From Candidatus Kuenenbacteria bacterium (GTDB lineage Bacteria > Patescibacteriota > Patescibacteriia > UBA2196 > GWA2-42-15): a DNA stretch of 60,339 nt. This document shows positions 12,975 through 57,972 of the stretch, one piece after another. Under the pieces are notes generated by a model that searched no databases, was not told the DNA's origin, and saw only the letters and a program-made list of their open reading frames with translations. The stretch lies in contig JAAZOM010000023.1 in the NCBI GenBank assembly GCA_012797775.1, forward strand, positions 1 to 60,339, written 5' to 3'. How positions within the stretch are numbered: the stretch's first letter is position 1; every line of letters starts with the position of its first letter. Position numbers and translations under genes: made by a program.

Positions 12975-13053
12975 ATTTGTTATAAGGTAATCTTATCTTA
13001 AAAAAGCCAATAAGGCAACCAGGATCATCATATCTTATAGGAGGGGAAAAAAG

Positions 13054-13320: not shown

Positions 13321-13337
13321 AATGCCAGAGCAGGCTT

Positions 13338-13376
13338 AACCGCGGTGGATCTATTCCTCCCGCGGTTATTATTTTA
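13338..13376 (+). terminator. Hairpin terminator
   Basis: AACCGCGG...CCGCGGTT (8-bp stem, 14-nt loop) followed by ATTATTTT. Confidence 0.55.
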
Positions 13377-13419
13377 TCAACAAAAAACCGTCCTATCAGC
13401 GGCCTTAATTGAAAAATTT

Positions 13420-13451
13420 ATTGGAAATTGGAAATTAGAAATTGGGAATTG
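13420..13451. repeat. Heptanucleotide tandem array
   Basis: ATTGGAA ATTGGAA ATTAGAA ATTGGGA ATTG, located just downstream of the corA stop. Confidence 0.6.
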
Positions 13452-13454
13452 TAT

Positions 13455-18271: not shown

Positions 18272-18859
18272 TTATTTCCAATAGGTGATAGCGGAAATAT
18301 TTACCGACAAAATATGTTCTTCTACGATCACTTCTTCTGCTTTCCCGTCTTTTGCTGTTTGTTGGCCAGCTTTTTTCGTGTAGTTTACTGTTCCAGAAGA
18401 ATTTATTCTTATTCTATTTATATTTATATAATAATTGATTTTTTCCAAGCTATTTATATAATTCATTGTGTTATGGAGACCGCCATTCAGCCTTATCTCC
18501 ACTGGTACTATTTTTGCTCCCCCAGGGGCTTCACCGCTATCATTATTAAAAAGAATTTCCTGCTCTATCCCATTTTCGGTAGCTATTCTTTCTAGGTCAG
18601 TAATAAATTTTAATTCTTCGCCCTTTTTTAAAAAGGGTTCACCGAGCGCTTCTAAGTTTTTTTCTACATAATTTAGATTTTTTTGGTTTGTGGTGATGTT
18701 TTGCCCGAGAGCCAGGAGATCTTTTAGATTGTTTTTTTCGGCACTAATCAGAAGCTTGTCTTTTTTTATTTGGTTAGCCGCTGGAGCAATAACAAAAAAT
18801 ATCAGCATCAAGCCGATGAAGATCAAAGTACCGATTATAAGATAATATTTTTTATGCAT
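18272..18859 (-). CDS. PilO-like pilus assembly protein
   Basis: N-terminal TM, then coiled coil, then an alpha/beta domain. It sits after pilM-pilN. Confidence 0.5.
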   Translation of the reverse strand: MHKKYYLIIGTLIFIGLMLIFFVIAPAANQIKKDKLLISAEKNNLKDLLALGQNITTNQKNLNYVEKNLEALGEPFLKKGEELKFITDLERIATENGIEQEILFNNDSGEAPGGAKIVPVEIRLNGGLHNTMNYINSLEKINYYININRIRINSSGTVNYTKKAGQQTAKDGKAEEVIVEEHILSVNISAITYWK

Positions 18860-18868
18860 AAATCCGAT

Positions 18869-19372
18869 TTATTTCATCGTTGCCTCTATCGAGAAATCTA
18901 TATTGTTGCGCCGCAACAAGTTTGACACCGGTGACTTGATGTCCGCCACCAATGCAGAATTTCTCAAATTATCCTCAAGTTTTAAATAATCCGCCCTACT
19001 CTCTGCCAGGCCATATAGCATTATTTTTTTATTTTCTTTACTTAGTTCCAGAGAGTTTATTTTTATATTTTCTGGCACTAGTGCTATCACATCTTTCAAT
19101 AAGACAGACCACTTCAAATAATCTTTTTGTAATTCTATTATTTGCCCCATTTTTTTATTTATCTCATCTACCGCATTCTCATCGGTTGTCGGAGCGTATT
19201 TGGCCATATTTTCTATTCGATAATTCAGATATTTTTGGCCAAAGAAAAAAACTATAGCTATCAACACTACCACCACAAATATTGCCAGGACGCTGTTGGC
19301 CACCTCGGCAGCCAGCATGTCTTTTTTTATTTGTTCTTTTTCTTTTTCGCTAAGCAGGTTTAGTCTAATCAT
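18869..19372 (-). CDS. pilN: PilN-like pilus assembly protein
   Basis: MIRLNLLSEKE N-terminus followed by a single TM, as in PilN. It overlaps the end of pilM by 8 nt. Confidence 0.6.
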   Translation of the reverse strand: MIRLNLLSEKEKEQIKKDMLAAEVANSVLAIFVVVVLIAIVFFFGQKYLNYRIENMAKYAPTTDENAVDEINKKMGQIIELQKDYLKWSVLLKDVIALVPENIKINSLELSKENKKIMLYGLAESRADYLKLEDNLRNSALVADIKSPVSNLLRRNNIDFSIEATMK

Positions 19373-20480
19373 TTTTTTCTAAGTAGTTTCTAAGGGCCAG
19401 CCCAATAGCCGTTGTATATGATAATAACCCTTCCCTTTTTTCTGGTTTTGTTTCTATATTTTTCAATGGGTCACCATATTCCACTTTCCGACCAAGCCTA
19501 TCTTCAAGTATTCCGTCAAGATTAAACATATTGGCTCCGCCTCCGCACAAAACAATCTCCAGACTGCTGGTATCTTTACCAAAATGGGTTTGATAAAAAT
19601 TATCAGCATTTATTATTTCATTTATCAATTCATCGATGTTGTTGTTTATAATCTTTAATACCGCCCCCTTGCACCTCTTGGGGTTTGTGCCACAAATTAT
19701 CTTTGCCTTTTCAGCCTCGTCTTCGCTCAGCGACAACTCTCTTGATATTTTGTCAGTAATATTTTTGCCCGATATTTTGTTGAGGTTGTTGGTAAACTGG
19801 ATAAAGCCCTCATCAACCAAAATCAGGCTGGTTCTTGTCGCACCGAAATCAACAATTATTTTTGGGGGATAATCACGATTTTTGTTTTTGGGGCTATCTT
19901 TTTTGTTTATTAGCTTTGATAGCCAATTGATATCTTTTGTCTTGTTTTCCTCGGCCAAAACACTCCTAGCTATTGCTTGGGCCTCTATTTCCAAAGCAGC
20001 AACACCCACTCCGGCCATTTTGCAAACATTAGTGTATTCTTCGGCTACCGATTGTGGCACCACACCTACTAAAAATTTTTTATTTTTTTGGTCTTCATTA
20101 TTACCTTGCCAGTCCATTTGCACATCTTCAGACGATATGGGCATATGCCTCGGCAGCTCCTCCCTGATAGTTTCTTTCACGGGCTGATTTTTTTCAGGGA
20201 TCTCTATGACTTTTATAAAAGTTTTGGTCTCGGGCAACGACAAAACAGCATACTTGCTGGTAAATTTTTTTTCTGATTTTTCCAGAATTTTTTTTATTAT
20301 TTCTGCCACTCCCTCTTCATTTTTTATCTCCCCATCTTCTATATAGCCCAAAGGCACAGCGGCTGAGCCCATCGCCCTTATATATTTTTTCCCAGCCCTT
20401 ATCCCTATTTCTATTGCTTTTATAGACAAATCAGAGATGTCTAGGCCAAATATTTTTTTTGGTGAACCAATAAGGCGCAT
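19365..20480 (-). CDS. pilM: Type IV pilus assembly ATPase-fold protein PilM
   Basis: Actin-like fold with GLDISDLSIKAIEI near the N-terminus and DFGATRTS/GGGA phosphate motifs. Confidence 0.8.
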   Translation of the reverse strand: MRLIGSPKKIFGLDISDLSIKAIEIGIRAGKKYIRAMGSAAVPLGYIEDGEIKNEEGVAEIIKKILEKSEKKFTSKYAVLSLPETKTFIKVIEIPEKNQPVKETIREELPRHMPISSEDVQMDWQGNNEDQKNKKFLVGVVPQSVAEEYTNVCKMAGVGVAALEIEAQAIARSVLAEENKTKDINWLSKLINKKDSPKNKNRDYPPKIIVDFGATRTSLILVDEGFIQFTNNLNKISGKNITDKISRELSLSEDEAEKAKIICGTNPKRCKGAVLKIINNNIDELINEIINADNFYQTHFGKDTSSLEIVLCGGGANMFNLDGILEDRLGRKVEYGDPLKNIETKPEKREGLLSYTTAIGLALRNYLEKND

Positions 20481-20483
20481 ATT

Positions 20484-21986
20484 TTATTTTTCTGTCACCT
20501 CTTCCCACTTCAAAAATCTATATTCTCCGGTTGTGGGAAAGCTGGGCGGCGGATTATAATTTAAATTTGGGTCATAAATAGTTTCAGTATTGCGGTAGCC
20601 GGAGACGGTATTGCCACCAGCGTCAACCCATGACCAAGTCCAGATATTGTTTGTTATAATTGAGCCGTAGATTGTTATATTATTTCTCGATATATAATTT
20701 CTGGCGTTGGCTGGTACGGGGCGGGCACAGCCATTGCCATAACAGTAGTGCTTTCTGTATATCCGTCCCTTTTGGGCGAGCATAGCCGCATCTATTTCCA
20801 AAACATCGGGAGCAGCATAAAGAGGAATTATAATATCTGACTGGGAAACCAGTCCAAGGGTATTAGTATTGTCCCTAGAGACGTAAGTCAAATTTCCATT
20901 AATTCTTATTTTTGTTGTTTTGCCAGACTCTGGGAATTTGGCCGAGGCCAAAGTTGTTCTACCCTTTATCACCCCATTCACCCAAACATCGTCTTCTACA
21001 AAAATTATACCACAATTATTTGGTATCGCGTAGTTTCCCTCAAACTCTTCTCTCTCAAAATCATCAGTATCACGTATCCAGCCATTTCCATCATAACCCC
21101 AAACAGGATTTTCTACTTTTGTCACCCTATAAACATCAAAAGTGCCATTATCTTTGAATACAAAATGATAGCCCAAACCTCTTTGGGGCCAATAGCAGTC
21201 TGCCTTTGGCGCGCAACTCACTGTTTGTGATAGGGTCATTAGATTCCTAAGATCGATGGTCATGGCATTAAAATCTACATTATCACCAGGATATTGCCAT
21301 AAATTTTTATCACCACCCTCTCCCCAGACTCCACTGCACGTACAGCCATCCGGATTTACCCAACTGCAGTCTGGCGCAAGGGTATTACAGTTTGATTGAG
21401 TACAACCATGTTCACTACCGCAGATATAGGTTTCCTTTCGCGAAGAAGTTGTGTTATCATTTTGTCCGTCCATCCTTATCCCGCCGTTAGAGTGTACTGG
21501 CCCATGCAATGTTTCATTTTCTCCAAACCAGGCATTGGAGTTGGTCAGAAAAGCATAGGTTGACAAGGACTGCTTGCCATATTTCACTCTTATTTTTCTC
21601 TTCACATCTGGATCATTGTCCATATAGCCCGTCGACTCTATTGTTACAGCGTTGGAACAATCAACTTCCGGTGCCGTTATATTCAATTCATATTTTCCCA
21701 CAACATTGCCAAGATTATCTTTATAATCATGTATATATGGGCCCTCTTCTCCTGTCCCGTCCTGATAATCGCTCGGCGCGTGTATCAAATGCCATCTATA
21801 ATAATTTACCCCAGCCTCCGCCGCCGCCAAGGCTTTTTGCCAATTTATTTTTTTTAACCCAAGTTTGTGTTGCGAAGAAATAATGCCCGCAATACCGATC
21901 GCCACTACTGTGAAAAGGGTAGTAAAAACCAAGGCCATTATCAACATGCCGCCCCTCTGGTTTTTTATGAGATTATTTTTTTGCAT
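20484..21986 (-). CDS. Large PilX-N-like or pseudopilin-like protein (putative pilus-associated surface protein)
   Basis: QRGGMLIMALVFTTLFTVVAIGIAGI N-terminal segment, followed by a Cys/Asn/Gly-rich extracellular part. ATG 21986 is preferred over TTG 22010. Confidence 0.55.
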   Translation of the reverse strand: MQKNNLIKNQRGGMLIMALVFTTLFTVVAIGIAGIISSQHKLGLKKINWQKALAAAEAGVNYYRWHLIHAPSDYQDGTGEEGPYIHDYKDNLGNVVGKYELNITAPEVDCSNAVTIESTGYMDNDPDVKRKIRVKYGKQSLSTYAFLTNSNAWFGENETLHGPVHSNGGIRMDGQNDNTTSSRKETYICGSEHGCTQSNCNTLAPDCSWVNPDGCTCSGVWGEGGDKNLWQYPGDNVDFNAMTIDLRNLMTLSQTVSCAPKADCYWPQRGLGYHFVFKDNGTFDVYRVTKVENPVWGYDGNGWIRDTDDFEREEFEGNYAIPNNCGIIFVEDDVWVNGVIKGRTTLASAKFPESGKTTKIRINGNLTYVSRDNTNTLGLVSQSDIIIPLYAAPDVLEIDAAMLAQKGRIYRKHYCYGNGCARPVPANARNYISRNNITIYGSIITNNIWTWSWVDAGGNTVSGYRNTETIYDPNLNYNPPPSFPTTGEYRFLKWEEVTEK

Positions 21987-22127
21987 GGGGAGATGATTAG
22001 CAATAAACAATTAACAATTCGCAGTGGCCACATTATTTTTATTAATTGTCCGCTGTTTGTTATTATTATATCATATTTTTCTTTGTGTTATAATATTTAT
22101 ATAAATTAATATTATAAAAATATTATT

Positions 22128-22661
22128 ATGGCCGCACAAAAAATTATTTTAGTTGTTGCGCCGAGCGGCTTTCAAGATGACGAGTATCGCCTCACCAGAG
22201 AAGAGTTGGAGCATGCGCATCACGATATTGTTGTCGCCAGTGTCAAGATTGATCAGGCCATAGGCAAGTTTGGCAGTAATATCAGTGTTGATTTGGCCCT
22301 TTCCGATCTCAACCTAGATGACTGCACAGCGCTGGTATTTATTGGCGGACCAGGCGCCGAGATTTATAAAACCGATCCCGTTGCTCTAGATTTAGTGAGC
22401 CGAGCAATGGCGAAAAATAAAATTTTAGGAGCTATTTGTATTGCCCCACTTATTTTTGCCCACGCCGGTATTCTTGATGGCAAAAAAGCCACTGTCTGGA
22501 CTGATGAAGGCGTCAATTCAACAGCTAGAGAATTAGAGCAATTTGGCGCGATATATACTGGCGAAGCCGTGGCTATTGATGGACAAATTATTACTGCCGA
22601 CGGCCCTTCGTCTGCCTCAGCTTTTGGCCGGGCCATTGTCAAAGCCCTGGCCGTCATATAA
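22128..22661 (+). CDS. DJ-1/PfpI family protein
   Basis: Class I glutamine-amidotransferase-like fold with the nucleophile elbow GAICIAP. Confidence 0.8.
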   Translation: MAAQKIILVVAPSGFQDDEYRLTREELEHAHHDIVVASVKIDQAIGKFGSNISVDLALSDLNLDDCTALVFIGGPGAEIYKTDPVALDLVSRAMAKNKILGAICIAPLIFAHAGILDGKKATVWTDEGVNSTARELEQFGAIYTGEAVAIDGQIITADGPSSASAFGRAIVKALAVI

Positions 22662-22744
22662 TTGATATAAAAAATAAAACCGCCAGATAGACATTTTGAC
22701 CCAGTTTTTCTAGCGGTTTTTGGTTCCCAAAACAGTCTTGGGGT

Positions 22745-22930
22745 TTAAAGAATCCACTCATCTGCTTGCGCGAGATGTGGATATTTTTTTTTCAGCTCTT
22801 CGGCGCCGTTTTCTCCGCCCTCATTTTTGGGCAATATTTTTTTGGGCGCAGTAATAGCGGCAATACAAAGCATGAGCGCGAGGTTACTTGCAGTCGTGGC
22901 TACTTTTGCGATTTCATTTGCAGTACTCAT
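22745..22930 (-). CDS. Hypothetical 61-aa protein downstream of the tRNA-like gene
   Basis: GAGAGAGG lies 6 nt upstream of the ATG. One hydrophobic stretch. No motif recognised. Confidence 0.4.
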   Translation of the reverse strand: MSTANEIAKVATTASNLALMLCIAAITAPKKILPKNEGGENGAEELKKKYPHLAQADEWIL

Positions 22931-22969
22931 AATAAGCCTCTCTCGTTTTTATTTGGGGTTTTATTTTAG

Positions 22970-23041
22970 TAGAGCCGACAGGATTTGAACCTGCGTGATC
23001 CTGAATGTTTGTCAGGTGCCTAGCCGCTCAGCCACAGCTCT
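22970..23041 (-). tRNA. tRNA-like gene with a good cloverleaf but a non-canonical anticodon loop CAAACAU (A at position 33). Isotype unassigned.
   Basis: Acceptor AGAGCTG/CGGCTCT, D-arm GCTG-AGCGGCT-AGGC, anticodon stem CCTGA/TCAGG, T-arm GCAGG-TTCAAAT-CCTGT. No encoded CCA. Confidence 0.6.
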
Positions 23042-23211
23042 GGTAGTTGTTGGTGGATAGGGGTAAAACTAAAAAAGAAAGAACCCAGACTGAGCATAGA
23101 ACCTAGTCCAAAAGGAAATCATTTTGTAGTTTTTAGTATGGCATTGCTTCTGGCGGGGTTTTTATACCCTGGTCATTTTTTAGGGTGGACTCCTGATTTT
23201 TGAGGATAGCT

Positions 23212-23481
23212 CTAGACAAAAAGGCAATATTCACCATTTTCTTCGCCATCTTGTTTCCCTGGTCTTATAACTGGCAACAATAAAAATGACATTTGAGCCG
23301 GTCTTGCCTCTTGGGCTAGAATGGCGACATATTTTTCCACATTGGCAAGCTCTCTCCTGAGCTCCTTAGCCGCTTGTGGTTGTTGCCCACGACGATGATT
23401 TCCTAGCACTCGAAGATAACTAAGGCGCAGCTCGTTGAGTCTTAATTTTAAAGCACTAAGAGCGGTTAGGTCAGACCACAT
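23212..23481 (-). CDS. Hypothetical 89-aa helical protein (GC-richer)
   Basis: AAAGGAGG lies 4 nt upstream of the ATG. The sequence is Arg/Leu/Glu-rich and coiled-coil-like. Confidence 0.5.
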   Translation of the reverse strand: MWSDLTALSALKLRLNELRLSYLRVLGNHRRGQQPQAAKELRRELANVEKYVAILAQEARPAQMSFLLLPVIRPGKQDGEENGEYCLFV

Positions 23482-23603
23482 AAGGCCTCCTTTGTTTTTT
23501 TGTTAATTTTTGTTTTTGGGCCAATACCTTAATATAAAGCTTTTTCTCGGCCCAGTTATGGATTTTTGTTTTTAATTTTTATAGCTGTTCGTGGTTGACG
23601 AAA

Positions 23604-23632
23604 CAAAAAATCGGACCTTTTTATTGCCCGAT
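23604..23632 (-). terminator. Terminator of the 30-aa peptide gene
   Basis: On the minus strand, ATCGGGC-AATAAAAAG-GTCCGAT followed by TTTTTT. Confidence 0.55.
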
Positions 23633-23667
23633 TTTAGGTTATAATTAAAGCTTCTCTAACCCAAAAA

Positions 23668-23760
23668 TCAGGCCAGTCCGATCAACAAAATAATAGCAAT
23701 AATCAAACCAAAGATATTGGTGCTCATGAGGATGTTGATTTGTTTTGCTATCTTATTCAT
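23668..23760 (-). CDS. 30-aa hydrophobic peptide (MNKIAKQINILMSTNIFGLIIAIILLIGLA)
   Basis: Hand-translated. It sits between its own near-consensus promoter and terminator, with a 5' UTR of only about 7 nt. Confidence 0.35.
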   Translation of the reverse strand: MNKIAKQINILMSTNIFGLIIAIILLIGLA

Positions 23761-23773
23761 AGATTGTAGTTTT

Positions 23774-23801
23774 ATTATACTAAATTTTTATAATTGGTCA
23801 A
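23774..23801 (-). promoter_or_regulatory. Sigma70-type promoter TTGACC-16-TATAAT
   Basis: Read on the minus strand, the -10 box ends 13 nt upstream of the peptide ATG. Confidence 0.55.
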
Positions 23802-23891
23802 GCAAATATTTTTTTAGCTAAAATAAGCAATGTTTTTAAATTTTGAATTAAAAATTAAAATTATTATATTTTTATCCACAGTTAGCCAAAG

Positions 23892-23920
23892 TTGACTTTC
23901 GCGAAAAGTTATTCTACAAT
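23892..23920 (+). promoter_or_regulatory. Sigma70-type promoter TTGACT-17-TACAAT
   Basis: TTGACT 23892-23897, a 17-nt spacer, TACAAT 23915-23920. It is divergent from the 23774-23801 promoter. Confidence 0.55.
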
Positions 23921-23931
23921 AACAAGCACAT

Positions 23932-24070
23932 ATGAATACAAAATTATCCAACCATATCAGCTGGAATTTGGCCATCATTAAGAAGGTCTATTTTGACATG
24001 GCTTATTTCCGGGGATAATTACGTTCGAATTAATACAAAAATCACAATCCCCGGTCACAAAGCCGGGGAT
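23932..24070 (+). promoter_or_regulatory. Candidate leader with a 28-codon ORF and mutually exclusive hairpins (attenuator-like)
   Basis: Region A is TCCGGGGAT (24008-24016, overlapping the ORF stop). Region B is ATCCCCGG (24047-24054). Region C is CCGGGGAT (24063-24070). B can pair with either A or C. Confidence 0.35.
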
Positions 24071-24115
24071 TTAAAATTTAAAAATCAAAAAATAAACTGG
24101 AGGGAGGTGAAGCTT

Positions 24116-24169
24116 ATGCCATATCATTTTTATCGCGGCTATGATGATTGCGATCCGCCAACCGAATGA
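24116..24169 (+). CDS. 17-codon micro-ORF (MPYHFYRGYDDCDPPTE)
   Basis: GGAGGGAGG lies 8 nt upstream of the ATG. Coding status is uncertain. Confidence 0.25.
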   Translation: MPYHFYRGYDDCDPPTE

Positions 24170-34323: not shown

Positions 34324-34329
34324 ATTTTT

Positions 34330-34448
34330 AACAATCAATTTTGCCATAGACAGCAGGCACCGGCCTATTAGGCCCCTAAGTCCTGCCGAGGTAAATATCT
34401 AGCCGATTTCGGTCTATATTTTACTCTGTGGCAAAACCACAGTTTTTT
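34330..34448 (+). promoter_or_regulatory. L10 (rplJ) leader with an attenuator hairpin
   Basis: Structured 5' UTR (GCAGG/CCTGC and GGCC-TATTA-GGCC helices) ending in CTGTGG-CAAAA-CCACAG followed by TTTTTT at 34426-34448, just before rplJ. Confidence 0.5.
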
Positions 34449-34468
34449 AATTAAATAAATAATAAAAT

Positions 34469-38339: not shown

Positions 38340-38378
38340 TGCCTGATTATTTAAAATATTTTTGGCGAATAAAATATC

Positions 38379-38409
38379 AAGATATTAAATATTGAATATT
38401 CAATATCTG
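38379..38409. repeat. Palindromic heptamer array
   Basis: AAGATATTAAATATTGAATATTCAATATCTG, with the units TTAAATA TTGAATA TTCAATA. The first 22 nt are identical to 44362-44383. Confidence 0.6.
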
Positions 38410-40965: not shown

Positions 40966-41156
40966 GGGATAATAATCAAGGCCCCTACCTCGCCGGCAGG
41001 CGGGCAAGATGCAATTTCCAAATAAGCATCAAGCTCCAAATTCAAAGCACAAAATAAATTTCAAGCATCAATATTCAAATAAATAATTGCTATTCTGAGT
41101 TTTGTTGATTGAGTTTTAAAATTAAGATTTATTTAAAAATTAAAAATTAAAAAATT
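40966..41156. repeat. Composite spacer with a GC hairpin core followed by about 150 nt of degenerate heptamer words
   Basis: CCCCTACCTCGCCGGCAGGCGGGCAAGAT, then ...GCATCAA GCTCCAA ATTCAAA GCACAAA..., then ATTTAAA AATTAAA AATTAAA. It shares words with the cysS and GT insertions. Confidence 0.55.
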
Positions 41157-41666
41157 ATGAAATTGGTCTTAATGATGGCCATCACCCTCGATGGTAAGAT
41201 CGCCAAACATTCCACCCAGCTGGCCGACTGGACTTCCCAAGCTGACAAAAAAATATTTGTCGAGGAAACCAAAAATGCCGGCGTGATTATCATGGGTAAA
41301 ACGACCTATGAAACTATTGGCAAGCCTTTGCCCGGCCGGCTAAATATTGTTTTGGACAAAAATCCGGACACCAGCAAAAATATTGCCGGCTCTTTGGAAT
41401 ATACCAATTTAGCACCCCAAGAATTGCTGGCTGATTTATCTGCCCGTGGTTTTGAGAAAGTTATTCTCGGCGGCGGCGCCACGATCAATGGTTTGTTTCT
41501 CAAAGAAAATTTAATCGATGAAATCTGGCTGACTATTGAGCCAAAAATTTTTGGCGAGGGCCTCTCGCTCTTCAAAGACGCGGATGTTGATTTGGAGTTG
41601 GAATTATTAGAAGTCAGAAATTTGTACAAAAATGTGATACAAGTCAGATATAAAGTTGCTAAATAG
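41157..41666 (+). CDS. Dihydrofolate reductase-like protein (RibD C-terminal domain family)
   Basis: MAITLDGKIA, GKTTYE and ILGGGATING. It lies downstream of thyA. Confidence 0.7.
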   Translation: MKLVLMMAITLDGKIAKHSTQLADWTSQADKKIFVEETKNAGVIIMGKTTYETIGKPLPGRLNIVLDKNPDTSKNIAGSLEYTNLAPQELLADLSARGFEKVILGGGATINGLFLKENLIDEIWLTIEPKIFGEGLSLFKDADVDLELELLEVRNLYKNVIQVRYKVAK

Positions 41667-41667
41667 T

Positions 41668-42438
41668 ATGGAAAAGATTTTTATCCAAAATCGCAAAAAT
41701 CAAAAACTCGCTGTTCTTATCGACCAACCGGAAAATCCCAAGGGCCTAGCTTTTATCATGCATGGACTTGGAGGCCGCAAAGAACAACCACACATAATGA
41801 CATTTGCCCAGAGTTTCCAAGATGCTGGTTATATCGTAGTTAGATTTGATACCACCAATACTTTCGGTGAAAGCGATGGCAACTATGAAGACGCGACTAT
41901 TACCAATTATTATCAAGATCTGGAAGACGTTATTAACTGGTCTAGTTCACAAACTTGTTATATAGAACCATTTGTTTTAGTCGGCCACAGCTTGGGCGGC
42001 ATCAGTATCGCCCTTTATGCTGAAAAATATCCAGCAAGAATCAAAGGACTGGCTCCCATATCAACCGTTGTATCATATGAACTTAGTTGTGCGACCCAGA
42101 AATACAAAGAAACAATAGATGAATGGCAGAAAACAGGCTGGCGAGTCACCGAGAGCTCCTCGCAACCTGGCCTGATAAAAAGACTAAAATGGTCTCATAT
42201 GGTCGATCGGGCTAAATATGATTTATTGCCAGAGGCAAATAAGCTAACAATGCCAGTTTTAATGGCCGTCGGCGATCAAGATGACAGCACCCCGTTGGAG
42301 CATCAGAAAATATTATACGACGCCCTCAATTGCCCCAAGGAATTTCATATTATTCCCTGTGCGCCACACACATTCAAGGATCCCAAACACCTTAAAGAGC
42401 TGAAAGAAATTTTTGATCAGTGGGTTAAAAAGATTTAG
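41668..42438 (+). CDS. Alpha/beta hydrolase
   Basis: GHSLGG nucleophile elbow and C-terminal Asp/His positions. ATG 41668 is preferred. Confidence 0.7.
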   Translation: MEKIFIQNRKNQKLAVLIDQPENPKGLAFIMHGLGGRKEQPHIMTFAQSFQDAGYIVVRFDTTNTFGESDGNYEDATITNYYQDLEDVINWSSSQTCYIEPFVLVGHSLGGISIALYAEKYPARIKGLAPISTVVSYELSCATQKYKETIDEWQKTGWRVTESSSQPGLIKRLKWSHMVDRAKYDLLPEANKLTMPVLMAVGDQDDSTPLEHQKILYDALNCPKEFHIIPCAPHTFKDPKHLKELKEIFDQWVKKI

Positions 42439-42442
42439 AAAC

Positions 42443-43138
42443 ATGTATTATCTCCTCGCCATTTTAATCCTTTGGTTGATCCTCATCCTTGCCGGTGACT
42501 GGCTAGCTTGTCGTTCAAAGCTAACCAAAGCCGATTGCCTTATTTGTTTATCTGGCACGCGTGGCCGTATAAAATTCGCTGAAGACAAAATCAAAGCCGT
42601 TCAAAAAATATTCACGGCTGGTTATACTAAAAATATTATTTTTACTTCATTTTTTGCGTTTAAGGTAAATGGCGACTATAAACCGATTGGACCAGAAGAA
42701 ATAAATTATATAAATAAAGCTGTCACTGAAGGGAGAGTTACTCCAGCTTACGCCGAATTAATAATCAAGAATGGTGATTTTAATCTGGGCGCTATTGGTA
42801 TGCGTGATAGAGCATTATCGGCCGGTATTCCTATGGAAAACACTTTTTTGTGCCCTTGGTCTTTAAATACCAAAGAAGAAGCCCTCGCTGTTTTTGAATT
42901 ATGTCAATCAAAAGGCTGGCAAAGCGCGATTCTTTTAACTGCTCCTTTTCATCAAAAACGCGCTTATCTTACTTTTAAAGCTTTCGCGCCAACCAATTTT
43001 AAGCTTATTAGTTATTCAGCCGAAACGAGTGAATGGCCACGCTTTTTCTGGTTTTTAAAATTAGCAAATTTAAAATTATTTTTTAACGAGACTATTAAAA
43101 TTATTAAATATAGTCGGCAAAGAAAAAATAAAAAGTAA
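42443..43138 (+). CDS. Membrane-anchored DUF218/YdcF-like protein
   Basis: N-terminal TM and an overall resemblance to the ElyC/YdcF fold (weak, from memory). ATG 42443. Confidence 0.45.
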   Translation: MYYLLAILILWLILILAGDWLACRSKLTKADCLICLSGTRGRIKFAEDKIKAVQKIFTAGYTKNIIFTSFFAFKVNGDYKPIGPEEINYINKAVTEGRVTPAYAELIIKNGDFNLGAIGMRDRALSAGIPMENTFLCPWSLNTKEEALAVFELCQSKGWQSAILLTAPFHQKRAYLTFKAFAPTNFKLISYSAETSEWPRFFWFLKLANLKLFFNETIKIIKYSRQRKNKK

Positions 43139-43187
43139 TCGTTCCTTTATCTGTAAATTAGTAAGAGATTAGTAAATTCGTAGATTT

Positions 43188-44333
43188 ATGAAAATTGCTC
43201 ACCTAATCTGTAAATTTCCCCCCTACCGTGGCGGCATGGGCAATGTCGCATATGAGCAGGTAAAACGCCTGGCCGAAATGGGCCACGAGGTGACGGTTTT
43301 TACTTTGGATCAAAAAGAAAAATTAGACCCTCAAACTATTAATTTTAAAATAGAATATTTAAATCCCTTATTACGCCTGGGTAATGGCGGTTTTTGTCCA
43401 CAGATTATTAAAAAGCTAAAAGACTTTGATGTTATTCAATTACATTATCCATTTTTTGGCGTGCAGGAAGTTTTGTGGCTGGGTAAAAAATTGGGTTTAA
43501 TTAAAGCCAAATTAGTTATTACTTACCACATGGATGCCAGCTTCGATAATTGGTTTTTGAAATTATTAAGTTTTAAATCATGGTTGATTCGCCGCAGTTT
43601 ATTCAAAATAGCCAAGCAGGTTTGCTCGGCTTCACTAGATTATGTCAGGCATTCCAAGATAAAAAATATTTACCATAAATACCAAGATAAATTTGTAGAA
43701 ATTCCTTTTGGGATCAGCCACTCGCCAGATCAAATAAGCCGCGAGAGATTGGAAAAAGTAAAACAGCAAATTCATTGGCAGGGTGGAGAAAAAAATATTT
43801 TATTTGTCGGCAATCTGGATCGCGCTCATTATTTCAAAGGTGTTGATATTTTACTAAAAGCATTTTACAAGTTACAGGTTACAAGTTACAAGTTGCTAAT
43901 TATTGGCGACGGTGATCTCCGTTTCACTTACGAAAAGCAAGCAGAAGAATTAAAAATTTCCGATCGTGTTTATTTTGCCGGTCGTGTTTCTGATGAAGAT
44001 TTACCTTGTTATTATTATCTTTCTGACGTAGTTGTCCTGCCGTCAATCACCAAAGCCGAGGCTTTTGGACTGGTTTTGGCCGAAGCCGAGAGTTTTGGCA
44101 AACCAGTTATCGCTTCCGACTTGCCCGGCGTCAGGAGTGTGGTGGGTGAGGCAGGTTTATTAGCAAAGCCTGGCGATATTGACGATTTGGCTGAAAAGCT
44201 TAAAATAATTTTATCCAATGAAAATCTGCGTCAGCAATTTTCTGCTGCCGGTTTGAACCAAGTCAAAGCAAAGTATAATTGGGATGAACATGTTGAAAAA
44301 CTTAACCAACTATATAAGAAAACGGGGGAGTAG
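43188..44333 (+). CDS. Glycosyltransferase family 4 (GT-B)
   Basis: C-terminal E..FG.V..EA motif (EAFGLVLAEAESFGKPVIASD) and an N-terminal Gly-rich loop. Confidence 0.8.
   Translation: MKIAHLICKFPPYRGGMGNVAYEQVKRLAEMGHEVTVFTLDQKEKLDPQTINFKIEYLNPLLRLGNGGFCPQIIKKLKDFDVIQLHYPFFGVQEVLWLGKKLGLIKAKLVITYHMDASFDNWFLKLLSFKSWLIRRSLFKIAKQVCSASLDYVRHSKIKNIYHKYQDKFVEIPFGISHSPDQISRERLEKVKQQIHWQGGEKNILFVGNLDRAHYFKGVDILLKAFYKLQVTSYKLLIIGDGDLRFTYEKQAEELKISDRVYFAGRVSDEDLPCYYYLSDVVVLPSITKAEAFGLVLAEAESFGKPVIASDLPGVRSVVGEAGLLAKPGDIDDLAEKLKIILSNENLRQQFSAAGLNQVKAKYNWDEHVEKLNQLYKKTGE
43865..43896. repeat. In-frame heptamer array inside the GT4 gene
   Basis: TTACAAG TTACAGG TTACAAG TTACAAG TTGC, encoding YKLQVTSYKLL. 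Confidence 0.6.
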
Positions 44334-44361
44334 AAGCCAGCCTAACAATTTATTTTTGATG

Positions 44362-44407
44362 AAGATATTAAATATTGAATATTAAATATTTAATATTCAA
44401 TATCCTG
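44362..44407. repeat. Palindromic heptamer array, the longer allele of the 38379 element
   Basis: Same ends as 38379-38409 with an extra AAATATTTAATATT (14 nt, two units) at 44384-44397. Confidence 0.6.
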
Positions 44408-44468
44408 GTGTTCAAAAAATTGCAGTAATCTAATTAATGGTCCCCTGGTGAATAACTTTTAATATAAT

Positions 44469-45266
44469 ATGGTAGATAATAAAAAAATTGGTCTGGCTCT
44501 CGGTTCTGGCGGCGCCCGCGGCCTCGCCCACATCGGCGTGATCAAAGTTTTGGAACAAAATAATATTCCTATTGATTTTATCGCCGGCACCAGCATGGGG
44601 GCGATCATTGGTGGTGTTTATGCCAGCCACAAGAATATTAAATTAATTGAAGACTCTTTTTTGGCCACCGACTGGAAAAGGTATATCAAGCTAACCAGTG
44701 ATTTATCTATTTTTTCCGGTGGTCTAGTGGCCGGCGAAAAAATCAAAAATTTTATTCAATCGGAGCTAGAGTGTGCTAAAGAATTTTCTGATTTAAAAAT
44801 TCCTTTTGCTGCCGTGGCTACCAATATGGAAAATGGCGAACCAGTTACTTTCCGGACCGGCAGCTTGGCTGATGCTATCCGCGCCAGCCTTTCTTTTCCT
44901 GGTGTCTTGTCGCCGGCGGAAATCAACGGGCAATTTTTTATTGATGGCGGCGCAGTCAACCCCGTACCGGTTGAGGCTGTCAAAAAAATGGGCGCTGATA
45001 TTATTATTGCTGTGAATCTGGAAGAAAGGGGTGGTAGTTATTTACATCCAGACAAAGGTAGTAAAAAATTATCCAACAACCTTTACAGTGCCGTACGCAT
45101 TATGCAAAGAAAGCTAGCCAACTATTGTTGTGTTGGAGCTAGCATCGTTATTAGCCCAGCCGTTGATAAGTATAATTGGATTCAATTTATGGAGGCCAAA
45201 GATATTATTTCTGCCGGTGAAAAATCAACTGTTCAGGCCCTAGAAAAAATAAAATCTCTGCTATAA
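44469..45266 (+). CDS. Patatin-like phospholipase
   Basis: GSGGARG oxyanion loop, GTSMGA (GxSxG) and the DGG catalytic Asp motif. Confidence 0.85.
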   Translation: MVDNKKIGLALGSGGARGLAHIGVIKVLEQNNIPIDFIAGTSMGAIIGGVYASHKNIKLIEDSFLATDWKRYIKLTSDLSIFSGGLVAGEKIKNFIQSELECAKEFSDLKIPFAAVATNMENGEPVTFRTGSLADAIRASLSFPGVLSPAEINGQFFIDGGAVNPVPVEAVKKMGADIIIAVNLEERGGSYLHPDKGSKKLSNNLYSAVRIMQRKLANYCCVGASIVISPAVDKYNWIQFMEAKDIISAGEKSTVQALEKIKSLL

Positions 45267-45343: not shown

Positions 45344-46555
45344 ATGGATATTCCCTCACAAAAAACTACCAAAGTTTTAGTTTTTTCTCTTACTTATTTA
45401 CCCTTTATCGGCGGGGCAGAAATTGCCCTGAAAGAAATTACTGACCATCTAGAAAATTTTGAATTTCATCTAATTACGGCTAAAATTAGCCCAGATTTAG
45501 CATCAGAAGAAAAAATAGGCAATATTCATATCAGAAGGCTTGGTCATGGGGGCAAGTTAGATAAATATTTATATCCGCTGCGTGCTTATTCGCTGGCGCA
45601 CAAACTACACTCCCAATATAATTACAATTTAATCTGGGCCATGCTGGAAACCTGGGGTGGTATTGCCGCTCTGTTTTTTAAATTTCGTTTCCCAAAAATA
45701 AAATATCTGCTCACCATGCAGAGTGGTGATTCAGATTGGTTTATCAGGTTGCGGACTTGGTTTTGGTGGCCGCTTTATAAAATGGTTTACACCCGCTCTG
45801 ATCATATCCAAGTTATCAGTAGCTGGCTCGCCAATCGCGCCAGAAAATATGGGTATAAAAAAGAAATTAGCATCGTGCCAAATGGGGTGGATTTAGAAAA
45901 ATTTAAAACTCCTACCGCGCCGGCCCGCTTCAACGCGAGGCGAGCAGGCGAGCAAAATTCAAAATTAAAAATTAAAGAAGAACTAAGTATTAAGCCAGAA
46001 GATAAGATTATTCTCACTGACTCTCGTCTCGTCGTCAAAAATGGTGTCGCTGACCTGATAAAGTCATTCCACTTACTAGTTACTAGTTACAAGTTACCAG
46101 TTACTTTGTTTATCCTTGGTTCCGGTCCCCTAGAAAAACAATTAAAACAATTGGCTACTCAGCTGGGTGTTCAAGATAAAATAATTTTTCTAGGCACTGT
46201 ACCTTATGAAAAGATCGAAGATTATTACCAAGTCGCCGATGTTTTTGTGCGCCCTTCTTTGACCGAGGGTTTCGGCAATGTTTTTGTCCAAGCCATGGCT
46301 GCTGGACTACCGGTGGTGGCCACTCCGGTCGGCGGTATTATTGATTTTCTCAAAGAAGGAGAGACAGGCTGGCTGTGCCAAGTAAAAAAACCAGAGAGTA
46401 TTGCAGAAAAAATAAAATATATTTTAGATGAGCGCAACCAGGCTGAAGTTGAGCGAGTTGTTGTTGGCGCTCAAAAAATGGTGGCGGAAAAATATAGCTG
46501 GGATTCAGTCTCTGACCAGATGAAAGCTATATTTAATTCTCTAATTAATACATGA
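45344..46555 (+). CDS. Glycosyltransferase family 4 (GT-B)
   Basis: EGFGNVFVQAMAAGLPVVATPVGG motif. It overlaps the next gene by 4 nt. Confidence 0.8.
   Translation: MDIPSQKTTKVLVFSLTYLPFIGGAEIALKEITDHLENFEFHLITAKISPDLASEEKIGNIHIRRLGHGGKLDKYLYPLRAYSLAHKLHSQYNYNLIWAMLETWGGIAALFFKFRFPKIKYLLTMQSGDSDWFIRLRTWFWWPLYKMVYTRSDHIQVISSWLANRARKYGYKKEISIVPNGVDLEKFKTPTAPARFNARRAGEQNSKLKIKEELSIKPEDKIILTDSRLVVKNGVADLIKSFHLLVTSYKLPVTLFILGSGPLEKQLKQLATQLGVQDKIIFLGTVPYEKIEDYYQVADVFVRPSLTEGFGNVFVQAMAAGLPVVATPVGGIIDFLKEGETGWLCQVKKPESIAEKIKYILDERNQAEVERVVVGAQKMVAEKYSWDSVSDQMKAIFNSLINT
45909..45979. repeat. GC-core plus heptamer element embedded in frame in the GT4 gene
   Basis: CTCCTACCGCGCCGGC matches 40982-40997 at 14 of 16 positions. 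AGGCGAGCAAAAT resembles 40998-41010. It continues TCAAAAT TAAAAAT TAAAGAA. Confidence 0.6.
46073..46107. repeat. In-frame heptamer array inside the second GT4 gene
   Basis: TTACTAG TTACTAG TTACAAG TTACCAG TTACTTT, encoding LLVTSYKLPVT. Confidence 0.6.
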
Positions 46556-49769: not shown

Positions 49770-51038
49770 ATGAAAAAAATAATTCAATTTATTTTAAAAT
49801 TTTTTTGTCGCCTGATTTTAAAAAAATATCAGCCAGAAATTATTGGCATTACCGGTAGTGTGGGTAAGACTTCAGCCAAGCTGGCCGTCGAAGTGGTTTT
49901 GTCACCGAGTTTTATTGTTCGCTCCAGCCCCAAAAATTATAATACCGAGATTGGCGTCCCCCTTACTATTATCAACACCAAAAATCCCGGCCGTTCTCTT
50001 TTTGGCTGGCTCGTTGTTTTTCTAAAAGCCTTGTCCTTGATTGTTGCTCGCGACAGAAATTATCCACAAATATTAATCTTGGAAATGGCCGCCGACCACC
50101 CAGGTGATATCGAATACCTTGTTAATTTGGCTAGGCCAAAAATCGGCGTGATTACCGCTGTCGGTCCGACCCATCTGGAATTTTTTAAAAGTGTGGAAAA
50201 TGTTTTTAAAGAAAAAAACAAACTTATTGCCGCAATCGATAAATCTGGCTGGGCCATTATCAATAGCGACGATCCTCTGGCTCTAAATTCCAAAAACAGC
50301 GCCAAGGCCAAAACTATCACCTTTGGACTGAGCCCCGGCGCTGATCTGCTCGCTGCCGACATTATCCTAGATAAAGAAAAATATTCGCTTAATTTCAAGC
50401 TGGGTTATCGGGGTTCTTTCGTTCCAGTCAGTCTGGAAAACATTCTTGGTCGTCCAGCTCTTTATGCTGTTTTGGCCGGAGCTGCGGTAGGTCTAGCTCG
50501 TGGTTTGAACCTAGTAGAGATCAGCCTGTGCCTGAAAAATTATCAATCCCCATCTGGCCGTCTAAAAATTATACCCGGTATAAAAAACACCAAAATTATT
50601 GATGATACCTACAACTCTTCCCCCTTGTCAGTCAAAGCTGGTCTGGAGGTCTTGTCACACCTTCGGTGTGCCGGCCATAAATTTGCCGTATTGGGGGACA
50701 TGTTAGAGCTCGGCAGTCATACCGAAAGCGCGCATAAAGAAATAGGTGAAGAGGTCGCCCGTCTCGGACTTGATTATCTGGTAGCTGTGGGAGAAAATTC
50801 ACGTCACCTCGCCGCCTCAGCCAAAGAATATGGCATGAACGAAGACCGCATTTATACTTTTGACAAATCTAGTGAAGCTGGTAAATTTATACAAGACAAA
50901 ATAGGAGAAGGGGATTTGCTTTTAATCAAGGGTTCGCAGGGTAGTCGCATGGAGAAAATTGTCAAGGAAATCATGGCCGAGCCAGAGCGGGCAGCAGAGT
51001 TGCTTGTTCGTCAGGGTGAAGAGTGGGAGAGAAGATAA
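49770..51038 (+). CDS. murF: Mur ligase, MurF-like (UDP-MurNAc-tripeptide--D-Ala-D-Ala ligase)
   Basis: GITGSVGKTS P-loop, DDTYNSSP, and Mur ligase middle and C-terminal domains. Confidence 0.75.
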   Translation: MKKIIQFILKFFCRLILKKYQPEIIGITGSVGKTSAKLAVEVVLSPSFIVRSSPKNYNTEIGVPLTIINTKNPGRSLFGWLVVFLKALSLIVARDRNYPQILILEMAADHPGDIEYLVNLARPKIGVITAVGPTHLEFFKSVENVFKEKNKLIAAIDKSGWAIINSDDPLALNSKNSAKAKTITFGLSPGADLLAADIILDKEKYSLNFKLGYRGSFVPVSLENILGRPALYAVLAGAAVGLARGLNLVEISLCLKNYQSPSGRLKIIPGIKNTKIIDDTYNSSPLSVKAGLEVLSHLRCAGHKFAVLGDMLELGSHTESAHKEIGEEVARLGLDYLVAVGENSRHLAASAKEYGMNEDRIYTFDKSSEAGKFIQDKIGEGDLLLIKGSQGSRMEKIVKEIMAEPERAAELLVRQGEEWERR

Positions 51039-51160
51039 TTCTGAAATTTTTAATTTTCAATTTTCAAACAATTTTCAATACTCCAATTCTTCAATTAATT
51101 GAGACATTAAGAAATTGTAACATTCATTGAAAATTGAAAATTCAGTAATTGAAAATTAAC
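51039..51160. repeat. Inverted heptamer-array element (long AT-rich hairpin)
   Basis: The left arm (AATTTTC-type units) and right arm (GAAAATT-type units) are complementary. It shares an exact 17-mer with 57880-57896 and a 14-mer with 1-14. Confidence 0.65.
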
Positions 51161-51164
51161 TCAA

Positions 51165-51239
51165 GCCGCTATCGTCTAACGGTTAGGACGCCAGGTTCTC
51201 ATCCTGGTAATCGGGGTTCGATTCCCCGTAGCGGTACCA
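51165..51239 (+). tRNA. tRNA-Glu (anticodon CUC), CCA encoded
   Basis: GCCGCTA/TAGCGGT acceptor, D-arm GTCT-AACGGTTA-GGAC, anticodon loop TTCTCAT, T-arm GGGGG-TTCGATT-CCCCG, then ACCA. Confidence 0.92.
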
Positions 51240-51355
51240 ATACACATTTTAATTTTTAATTGCACCCATTTCTCTTGAATCGTTTTGCGTTTGCAGGGGA
51301 TCTGGCAATCAACAGTCAAAGAATAGAAGTGACCTCGGAGAGGTTTTTTATTTTG

Positions 51356-51391
51356 TCAAAAATAAAGCCGCTCACATTACCGTGGCGGCTT
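51356..51391 (-). terminator. Terminator of the carrier-protein-like gene
   Basis: AAGCCGC...GCGGCTT hairpin, followed on the minus strand by a T-rich run. Confidence 0.5.
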
Positions 51392-51415
51392 TTGACTAGT
51401 AGTTTTTTGGCGCGC

Positions 51416-51721
51416 TTATTTGTCGCTAAATACGGCGACAATTTTTTCCGCTACTACCCTGAGGGTCATTCCCGGGTTATCTTTTAGGATTCCGGCCAAC
51501 CCCTGATTTATAAAATCAACCCCGGGTAATGTTTTCTCAATGAACATTTCAAGCTCGATGACATCCAGGGAGTCGAGCTCAAACTCATCTTCTAAGTCGC
51601 CGACGGTTATTTGCCCGGCCTTTATTCTCCTGAAGAGGTCATTAGTGCCTACTTTCTGGTCGGTTATATTCTTGATCCCCACAACCATGGCGCGGATTAC
51701 TTGCCTTAATTTTAGTTTCAT
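51416..51721 (-). CDS. Acyl/peptidyl carrier protein-like protein (PP-binding motif)
   Basis: ELDSLDVIELEMFIEK matches the DSLD..ELvM..E phosphopantetheine-attachment helix of ACPs. GGAGG lies just upstream. GC-richer. Confidence 0.6.
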   Translation of the reverse strand: MKLKLRQVIRAMVVGIKNITDQKVGTNDLFRRIKAGQITVGDLEDEFELDSLDVIELEMFIEKTLPGVDFINQGLAGILKDNPGMTLRVVAEKIVAVFSDK

Positions 51722-51813
51722 CACACCCTCCTTTGTTGCGAACCCTGTTTCTTGTTGTTGTTTTCCTTTGTTTTTATAATTATTTAAGGGTATAATATCT
51801 TTTTGGTCTTGTC

Positions 51814-51841
51814 AAAAACCACCCAGCAGGGTGGTTTTTTG
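51814..51841. terminator. Bidirectional terminator
   Basis: AAAAA-CCACCC-AGCA-GGGTGG-TTTTTT. Confidence 0.7.
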
Positions 51842-51859
51842 TTTATTATTTATTCTTGC

Positions 51860-57321: not shown

Positions 57322-57864
57322 ATGGTTTTGGTATCACAATTGATTTGGCTCTTTTTGCCAGTTGGTATCGCCAATATTTTTGCCTCACTTTCACGGCACA
57401 TCTTGCCCCAATGGATTTATCCCTTGGATTTTAATAAGGAATTTAGAGGCAAAAGAATTTTTGGTGGCCACAAAACAATCCGCGGCTTTATTTTTGGGGT
57501 ATCAGCCGCTTTTTTGTTTTTTATTTTTCAAATATATTTATATAATACTTGCCCAGCCATCAACAATATTAGTCTTATTAACTATAGTGATTCAAGTATT
57601 CTCATTGGATTTATTATGGGGCTGGGCGCGCTTTTGGGCGACGCTCTCAAAAGTTTTTTCAAGCGCCAAATCAATATTCCCCCTGGCCGGCCATGGTTCC
57701 CTTTTGACCAGCTAGACTGGGTAGTCGGCGGCACTCTTTTGAGCTGGCCTTTTGTCAGTGTTTCCAGTTATACAATTATCACCGCCATCGGCTTGGGTTT
57801 ATTATTTCACTTATTATTCAAAGTTATTGGTTATATTTTTAGAGTAGACAAGACGATAATTTAA
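57322..57864 (+). CDS. CDP-archaeol synthase-like (CarS/DUF46 family) membrane protein
   Basis: LPVGIANIFA, FGGHKTIRGFIFG, GDALKSFFKRQINIPPG and PFDQLDWVVG match the CarS-family pattern (from memory). About 5 TM. Confidence 0.65.
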   Translation: MVLVSQLIWLFLPVGIANIFASLSRHILPQWIYPLDFNKEFRGKRIFGGHKTIRGFIFGVSAAFLFFIFQIYLYNTCPAINNISLINYSDSSILIGFIMGLGALLGDALKSFFKRQINIPPGRPWFPFDQLDWVVGGTLLSWPFVSVSSYTIITAIGLGLLFHLLFKVIGYIFRVDKTII

Positions 57865-57972
57865 CAATTTTCAATTTATAATTTTCAAACAATTTTATAA
57901 TGTCTTAATTTTTGAATTGAATAATTAGGACATTGTTTTGAAATTAAAAATTAGAAATTAAAAATTGTTTTT
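57865..57972. repeat. Inverted heptamer-array element, homologous to 51039-51160
   Basis: The left arm CAATTTTCAATTTATAATTTTCAAACAATTTT is complementary in vocabulary to the right arm GAAATTAAAAATTAGAAATTAAAAATTG. It shares a 17-mer with 51059-51075. Confidence 0.65.

Follow-up and report, generated by a model that had tools for sequence, protein, structure and literature searches.

The closest described counterpart of the elements reported here is the paired GGGAATC arrays of Xanthomonas, where each genome carries 70–75 convergent pairs of heptamer arrays and a locus that holds a single array or an inverted pair in one species usually holds the same type in others (Rehm et al. 2015, PMC4692102). 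Heptamer arrays are also found in Nostoc (GGGGAYT) and Calothrix (PMC4692102). Over-representation of heptamers in many bacteria was reported in a 2007 study, and an origin of bacterial heptamers by polymerase slippage has been proposed, in both cases in literature as cited in PMC4692102. We have analysed a stretch of 60,339 nucleotides (nt) of DNA (the window; contig JAAZOM010000023.1, forward strand) from Candidatus Kuenenbacteria, a member of the candidate phyla radiation (CPR). It contains element F, an AT-rich hairpin built of 7-nt units that fills the spacer between murF and a tRNA-Glu gene, together with a second copy, element G, and several other heptamer arrays.

Like the arrays of Xanthomonas and Nostoc (PMC4692102), the CPR arrays are intergenic tandem 7-nt units, usually of about four imperfect copies, and many of them occur as convergent pairs with the potential to form a stem-loop. 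Related species also retain them at the same gene junction, in altered length and sequence. The arrangement of two nearby arrays on opposite strands, by which the Xanthomonas pairs are recognized, is present in both F and G. The CPR units differ, however, in being AT-rich (AATTTTC/GAAAATT, AATATTN), with no G-quadruplex potential and no GGGNATC unit. In addition, several units occur in one CPR genome, some of the copies form a family of about 110 nt, and the genomes are very compact, with hairpins that reach from the stop codon of one gene to the start codon of the next. Start-proximal direct repeats of TAACTGA are known in marine Beggiatoaceae and in some Cyanobacteria and Bacteroidetes (MacGregor 2015, PMC4679880). 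Those repeats have one conserved unit and are nearly always direct and strand-specific, whereas the CPR units vary and many are inverted pairs.

The short tandemly repeated repetitive (STRR) sequences of heterocystous cyanobacteria are likewise heptanucleotide tandem arrays scattered in non-coding DNA, and an initial annotation of the window, made from the letters alone, had drawn this comparison aptly. The STRR units are defined, more G/C-rich and mostly direct, and belong to another phylum, whereas the CPR arms are inverted and their unit is variable. The units of F and G are not among the defined STRR heptamers, and the host is not a heterocystous cyanobacterium.

The repetitive extragenic palindromic (REP) sequences and bacterial interspersed mosaic elements (BIMEs) of enterobacteria, as well as the Rickettsia palindromic elements, are short imperfect palindromes found at gene 3′ ends and between co-transcribed genes. 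REPs are high-copy palindromes of 20–40 nt with a conserved head, stabilise the upstream mRNA and are linked to REP-associated tyrosine transposases (RAYTs), and Rickettsia palindromic elements are also found in frame inside the genes of a reduced genome. F and G have the same position at gene 3′ ends as REP and BIME. However, REP and Rickettsia elements are not heptamer arrays, and no RAYT gene was seen in the 60-kb window. Contiguous 7-bp units, both direct and inverted, are also recognized by the ribbon-helix-helix protein omega of pSM19035 (inc18 plasmids), which takes up 7 bp per dimer on direct or inverted heptads of the unit WATCACW at promoters. The omega system is plasmid-borne and promoter-located, with a known cognate protein, and the CPR unit differs from its own.

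Full-text searches of a paper library found no description linking CPR to such heptamer repeats. The initial annotation knew of no arm-core-arm elements of this kind in CPR-type genomes; the arm-plus-arm design does have a precedent, as such pairs are known in Xanthomonas (PMC4692102). Heptamer hairpins appear to be undescribed in CPR, but they resemble heptamer repeats known in other bacteria.

Structure of element F and its second copy

The murF/tRNA-Glu spacer is a member of an AT-rich palindromic family of about 110 nt (family 1), the arms of which are degenerate tandem arrays of 7-nt units. The features concerned are the following.

49770–51038, + strand: upstream gene, Mur ligase (MurF-like), with Pfam domains Mur_ligase_M and Mur_ligase_C
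51039–51160, + strand: element F, family-1 hairpin, filling the murF/tRNA-Glu spacer
51045–51078, + strand: left-arm array of F, AATTTTC-type, with the irregular word AATTTTCAAACAATTTT included; period 7, 3.3 copies, 93% matches by Tandem Repeats Finder (TRF)
51126–51157, + strand: right-arm array of F, GAAAATT-type; TRF period 7, 4.4 copies
51165–51239, + strand: downstream gene, tRNA-Glu (CTC), found by ARAGORN and Rfam
57865–57972, + strand: element G, second copy of family 1; takes up the spacer that separates a CarS-like gene from recO

The distance from the murF stop codon to tRNA-Glu is 126 bases. A repeat search finds two arms of 43 nt each in F (51033–75 and 51119–61), with 77% complementarity, and TRF places the period-7 arrays at 51045–67 and 51126–57. 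The RNA fold of F has an energy of −25.7 kcal/mol (z = −4.0), and 0/200 shuffles are as good. The stem opens at 51036, inside the stop codon of murF, and ends at 51151, leaving 13 nt before the tRNA. The heptamer-periodic inverted arms that the initial annotation had read from the spacer at 51039–51160 are therefore confirmed, with its coordinates.

The arms of G (57863–88 and 57944–69) are 88% complementary, with TRF period-7 arrays at 57865–88 and 57941–66, and the fold has z scores of −3.7 on the + strand and −6.1 on the − strand. The base of the G stem is located in the upstream stop codon, and its other end is 3 nt before a GTG start. The local alignment of F and G covers their full length, with 70% identity (z = 9.9, 0/1000 shuffles), which upholds the homology that had been proposed for the two spacers. 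It includes an exact 17-mer (51059 in F, 57880 in G), located in the left arm of F and found in the sister-strain F (see below) as well.

The likeness between F and G extends about 19 nt into the 3′ ends of the unrelated upstream genes (51020–51038 and 57841–57859), which are in different reading frames. The words in these gene ends, AGAGTGGGAGAGAAGATAA and AGAGTAGACAAGACGATAA, are identical at 14 of 19 positions. As the likeness reaches into the gene 3′ ends, the copied unit may include the gene end.

Copies at two loci, in two strains and in the orthologous spacer of another species establish the existence of family 1. Neither F nor G matches any of the Rfam 15 covariance models, even at E-values up to 1. 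The only Rfam matches above threshold in the window are the tRNAs and an L10 leader RNA (34326–34457).

The arrays were compared with dinucleotide shuffles of the 5.3 kb of intergenic DNA in the window. There are eight period-7 arrays of at least three copies, compared to 0.15 in the shuffles (0/200 reach eight), and TRF finds no array of at least three copies with a period of 4–6 or 9–14 in this intergenic DNA. Eighteen distinct 14-mers and seven distinct 17-mers are common to different spacers, compared to 0.81 and 0.03 in shuffles, respectively, so the shared words do exceed composition-matched controls, a comparison that the initial annotation had called for. The 7-nt periodicity it expected is strong in the local arrays, but the global intergenic autocorrelation is raised just slightly (0.319 for lag 7, compared to 0.296 for lag 6 and 0.287 for lag 9). 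The period-7 signal resides in local arrays.

Other heptamer arrays in the window

The remaining arrays in the window are listed below.

1–70, + strand: element H, a possible third, truncated family-1 copy, with an 11-bp stem AAACAATTTTC/GAAAATTGTTT
13406–13456, − strand: lone array A, (CAATTYC)n on the corA sense strand; TRF period 7, 4.6 copies (13420–51); begins 3 nt past the corA stop
38372–38408, no strand assigned: family-2 copy C, near-palindromic AATATTN array; TRF period 7 (38372–406) plus palindrome
41131–41156, + strand: lone array D, (AAAAATT)3; TRF period 7, 3.0 copies, 100% matches (41133–53); ends at the folA start codon
44346–44422, no strand assigned: family-2 copy E, AATATTN array; TRF (44365–403); positions 44372–44403 form a perfect 32-nt palindrome

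Copies C and E form a second family, with the AATATTN unit, that is separate from the AATTTTC family. Their alignment has a z score of 10 and their cores are 94% identical. None of the 87 loci searched contains the 18-nt AATATT palindrome. The window arrays therefore comprise at least two sequence families plus lone arrays, and at least three unrelated units (RRAAATT, AATATTN and GTTACNA) are found within this one window. The initial annotation had listed them under one repeated family; a dispersed family is real, but the arrays listed do not all belong to it. The additional arrays at 13420–51, 38372–406, 41133–53 and 44365–403 are recovered by TRF, but the one at 23834–68 is not. This last candidate ('array B') was rejected as a family member, as it is a 13–16 nt AT palindrome beside a DnaA box.

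Element H has an exact 14-mer in common with F (1 in the window, 51066 in F), as the initial annotation had noted. The similarity of H to F and G is weak, however (z about 3), and its fold is no better than shuffles (z = −0.5). The GC hairpin core that had been assigned to this copy is not borne out either: GGCGGGCGGGCG is a G-run with no GC hairpin. True GC-hairpin versions are found in relatives.

Arrays with a 7-nt unit are also found within coding regions, which is odd for a repeat of this length. The TTACAAG array at 43865–43894 (+ strand) is in frame inside a GT4 glycosyltransferase gene, and the TTACTAG array at 46073–46105 (+ strand) is in the homologous place in a paralogous GT4 gene. 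These GTTACNA repeats encode ..LQVTSYKL.. and ..LLVTSYKLPVT.. and are retained in the sister strain and in another species (loci L078, 13251–13280, and L001, 3393–3416), with no frame-shifting change in copy number. In L060, an (AATTTCC)x4.3 array at 588–617 is in frame in the essential-type gene rsmH, in a stretch of about 22 residues that the Thermus RsmH structure (1wg8) lacks.

Comparison with a sister strain

Logan assemblies provide a sister strain that is 98.5–99.6% identical to the window and covers most of it. Array D and element G are identical in the two strains. Per 100-nt bin, murF is 98–100% identical until its last 48 nt or so, which vary along with F. Aligned with the window F, the sister-strain F is only 78% identical, with 12 gap columns; identity returns to 100% in the tRNA. 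Compared to the window G, the sister-strain F has 82% identity with no gaps and a 19-mer in common, and this resemblance suggests gene conversion or recombination. One of the sister-strain contigs terminates in tRNA-Glu, just 3′ of F.

Copy C is absent in the sister strain, where the entire spacer differs, and a CYTH gene takes the place of copy E. Array A differs there, being shorter and forming a 37-nt corA–cysS spacer, and the adjacent 88-residue open reading frame (ORF) is missing. The variation among related genomes that the initial annotation called for is therefore present.

The strains differ in several blocks against a background of about 99% identity (12945–13432, 41656–43186, 43186–44290, 44290–44478 and 51257–51842), and several of the junctions of these blocks bear heptamer arrays. 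The 88-residue ORF and a 101-residue ORF are found in the window strain only. The variable content also includes abhydrolase and DUF218 genes in place of a Peptidase_S51 gene, one glycosyltransferase gene that is only 82% identical, and a missing CYTH gene. The sister strain has nothing corresponding to positions 1–163 of the window; in their place (L074 7500–7758) are a tRNA-Pro and a tRNA-like sequence, the end of which coincides exactly with the breakpoint (window 164). Positions 1–163 may be the edge of an insertion adjoining a tRNA gene.

The murF/tRNA-Glu spacer in relatives

The closest MurF, 72–73% identical, is from Candidatus Kuenenbacteria GW2011_GWA2_42_15 (Patescibacteria/Parcubacteria group), and scans of genomes and metagenomes for MurF relatives found none above 73% identity. 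The CPR-type genome that had been deduced from the letters is thus correct. The murF/tRNA-Glu spacer of GW2011_GWA2_42_15 has a similar hairpin, with a fold z score of −3.0 and with the exact 16-mer TTGAAAATTGAAAATT of the F right arm, the word that F shares with the orthologous spacer of L001 (MurF 72% identical). The spacer of L043 (MurF 57%) contains an AATTTAA array.

The heptamer hairpin is kept in all three members of a trio of loci with 81–95% identity (L006, L049 and L050). A 34-nt GC-hairpin block is missing from L050. In L049, the right arm bears an inverted copy of the left-hand GC-hairpin block, and this copy is not found in L006 or L050. Arm-to-arm copying is directly seen in L049. 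Besides L006 and L049, a true GC-hairpin version is found in L048, the element of which has real GC hairpins in the core plus the word AATTTTCAAACAATTG. A search by nhmmer with the family-1 profile finds similar elements in L060, L048 and L005.

A half-tRNA-like sequence (GGCCCGTTCGTCTAGTGACTAG...) is located between the hairpin and tRNA-Glu in relatives (L001 8577–8607, L041, L043 and L037/L039). Two metagenome variants diverge just past this sequence.

Period 7 across CPR lineages

The survey was extended to 43 other non-redundant CPR loci, with 69 kb of intergenic DNA, counting arrays of at least three copies. In the intergenic DNA, 45 arrays have period 7, compared to 8 with period 6, 20 with period 8 and 9 with period 9, and at least one period-7 array is found in 23 of the 43 loci. 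In the coding DNA of these loci there are 28 arrays of period 7 versus 23 of period 6. The coding arrays of SAR116 control loci have periods 6 and 9.

The sequence of the unit varies by lineage (AATTTCT, AGTTCAA, ATAGTTT, CCAATNA, GCTGAAA and others), yet the arms remain complementary (AATTTTC, AATTTCT, AGTTCAA, ATAGTTT and CCAATNA). A reverse-complement partner within 200 nt is found for 13 of the 54 intergenic CPR arrays, compared to 0–2 in three controls. In many CPR lineages, short tandem arrays take the 7-nt period whatever the sequence of the unit, and the heptad class recurs from Kuenenbacteria to Saccharibacteria. The survey also found a 20-copy AAATTTA array (L062 6440–6579), and another lineage, L024, with eight period-8 arrays (six of them intergenic) and none of period 7.

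Position of the arrays at gene junctions

The density of arrays is 0.91 per kb in same-strand spacers, 0.58 in convergent and 0.33 in divergent spacers. With genes called crudely as the longest ORFs, arrays in same-strand spacers touch or overlap the upstream stop codon in 11/37 cases (5.1 expected, p = 0.004) and end at most 10 nt before the downstream start in 15/37 (7.4 expected, p = 0.001).

When whole spacers are folded, the base of the hairpin is located at the stop codon and 1–7 nt before the start in G, in L034 (Saccharibacteria) and in L048. In L006, L049 and L050, TAGGCAT is paired with ATGCCT. The stop codon itself is inside the units of L002, L034 and L013. Only 9/61 ORFs in the window have a Shine-Dalgarno (SD)-like motif, and most starts are preceded by plain AT-rich sequence.

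Possible origin of the elements

We propose, with moderate confidence, that these elements are a heptamer-repeat palindromic family that arose from slippage plus arm-to-arm copying and is tolerated at gene junctions. The 7-nt step is constant across lineages while the sequence is not, which argues for a mutational origin that is independent of sequence. The complementarity of the arms and the likeness between loci mean that an extra copying step is needed. Slipped-strand duplication with a preferred 7-nt step, irrespective of sequence, would make the arrays. Selection would act as a filter: duplications should do no harm at a stop codon or beyond it, but should damage a gene when located inside it, unless their total length is in frame. 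Hairpin-templated strand switching would write one arm onto the other, L049 being the case in point, and gene conversion or recombination would transfer one element to another locus, giving rise to a sequence family.

Once transcribed, the element would fold back in the polycistronic RNA, with the stop codon and the next start (or the 5′ end of the tRNA) meeting at the base of the stem, and this fold-back geometry could be why the element is tolerated. F might act as a 3′ stabilising or processing hairpin of the murF mRNA after the tRNA is cut by RNase P. At junctions between two protein genes, the element may couple translation. Judged by this geometry, the elements may thus have RNA-level roles, as stabiliser, processing site or coupling device.

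Several observations weigh against this account. The murF/tRNA-Glu spacer of L003/L042 (MurF 59%) has only 19 nt and no hairpin, and in L090 (MurF 63%) murF is followed by a plain terminator and heptamer arrays are few. Copy E is identical to the orthologous spacer of L001 at 57/68 positions (84%), while the flanking glycosyltransferase protein is 64–67% identical, and the 16-mer common to F and its L001 ortholog is likewise conserved above the expectation for neutral drift. The conservation of both in L001 points to sequence selection or recent transfer. No 7-nt insertion or deletion is found between the strains that are 98.5–99.6% identical, D and G being unchanged, so that we infer ongoing slippage rather than observe it. 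The sense and antisense strands fold equally well (−28.3 vs −27.1 kcal/mol), with no asymmetry in G-U counts either, and since there is no sense-strand bias, folding gives an RNA-level function no direct support. Moreover, F precedes a tRNA, where translational coupling does not apply, and the gene calls behind the placement statistics are crude.

The main rival is a transposon-like mechanism, without its defining marks. F and the other copies would be non-autonomous mobile elements (MITE-, foldback- or REP-like, MITE standing for miniature inverted-repeat transposable element), the heptad arms serving as binding sites for a transposase or RAYT-like enzyme, encoded elsewhere, that copies them to new junctions. 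Similar copies are indeed found at unrelated loci (F/G and C/E), and terminal inverted repeats are present, with arms of 26–45 nt in elements of 108–122 nt, within the 50–500 nt size of MITEs. When the sequences are read directly, however, there is no target-site duplication at F, G, C or E, and the likeness between F and G, running about 19 nt into the upstream genes in different frames, gives the element an imprecise end. Copy C is present in the window and absent in the sister strain, and the sister-strain F resembles a G-type copy, both of which would fit mobility. On the other hand, no clean empty site is seen: missing copies come with altered spacers and gene ends, as after recombination, and F is replaced in the sister strain rather than absent. 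The MITE-like role raised in the initial annotation is not supported on these two grounds. The nhmmer matches in distant relatives (L060, L048 and L005) and the arrays in frame inside genes, like Rickettsia palindromic elements, are also in keeping with spread by transposition. But the element is found at the same junction across MurF identities of 57–72% (window, L001 and L043), and with lineage-specific units each lineage would need an enzyme of its own. Pfam scans of the proteins in the 60-kb window, and of about 15 kb of flanking sequence from the sister strain, saw no transposase or Y1/RAYT domain. We consider a mobile element unlikely as the source of these copies.

A stronger functional reading would make the CPR heptad hairpins lineage-wide bridges between genes. 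The stem would set the stop codon beside the next start, and a ribosome terminating there would open the stem at its base, releasing an A-rich leader, or be handed over directly, giving coupling across spacers of 70–170 nt. Before tRNA genes, the hairpin would provide a defined, protected 3′ end of the mRNA. This reading is rather improbable.

The heptads could alternatively be operator or iteron sites for a sequence-specific protein, either a ribbon-helix-helix protein (omega-like), a nucleoid protein or, on RNA, a cold-shock/S1-type protein that covers about 7 nt. Contiguous 7-nt units in direct and inverted order would suit such a protein, as would the RRAAATT/AATTTYY unit, which is kept in the window and in L001, L005, L006, L048, L050 and L060, and the sequence conservation of E and of the GAAAATT dimer. 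There are, however, at least three unrelated units in one window and others in other lineages, and the period alone is constant. The heptamer words are neither dispersed nor enriched: the 15-mer motif AATTTTCAAACAATT has 18 matches (14.5 expected), and the CodY-box-like AATTTTCWGAAAATT has 13 (12.6 expected). A-rich arrays just 5′ of starts, in a genome where only 9/61 ORFs have an SD-like motif, echo the TAACTGA repeats of Beggiatoaceae (PMC4679880), but the arrays have no consistent strand relative to transcription. No candidate binder turned up in Pfam scans of the window proteins, beyond which no search was made. A role as protein-binding sites is accordingly doubtful, with a slim chance of being correct.

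An unusual AT-rich terminator or insulator between murF and the tRNA gene, also put forward in the initial annotation, would account for a stable hairpin immediately past the stop codon and for the higher density of arrays in same-strand and convergent spacers than in divergent ones. But in terminator scans neither F nor G has a GC-rich stem with a T-run behind it, and the genome uses ordinary GC-hairpin/T-run terminators nearby, for example at 51331–55. The genes immediately after G and D lack promoter-like sites of their own beyond chance level, and a promoter scan found no such site above chance at F and G. With the hairpin missing from the 19-nt spacer of relatives as well, a terminator is very improbable. 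Finally, chance low-complexity AT-rich DNA with no repeat family is refuted and has practically no likelihood left, for although the spacers are 14–37% GC and short AT words recur readily, every shuffle control is exceeded and the architecture recurs in many genomes.

Other features of the window

The cumulative GC skew is lowest near 22 kb, and the predominant strand of the genes changes from minus to plus. The longest spacer (23482–24147), which is AT-rich, has a perfect DnaA box at 23872–80, and this spacer, in the region 22000–24147, is a possible replication origin, but the DnaA boxes are unclustered. The assignment of oriC to 23482–24147 was rejected, with one perfect DnaA box and no cluster. 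Words similar to TTATCCACA (at most one mismatch) number 45 across the whole window, versus 16 expected. The window also contains a type IV secretion coupling-protein-like gene (TrwB/TraG domains) and a PilM/PilN/PilO/PilX-like pilus cluster (15028–17592, 18272–22010).

Implications

CPR genomes are regarded as streamlined and repeat-poor, and they are mostly without SD sites and have few regulators. In the genomes described here, a structured class of repeats, fixed in its 7-nt step, makes up much of several spacers and the whole of some others, and the heptad arrays mark sites of contig breaks and of strain differences. If the elements are mutational debris only, the class still reports a strong, lineage-wide bias in replication or repair. 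If they are functional, they would bear on operon expression in organisms with few SD sites and regulators, and they would offer a testable handle on the role of bacterial heptamer repeats.

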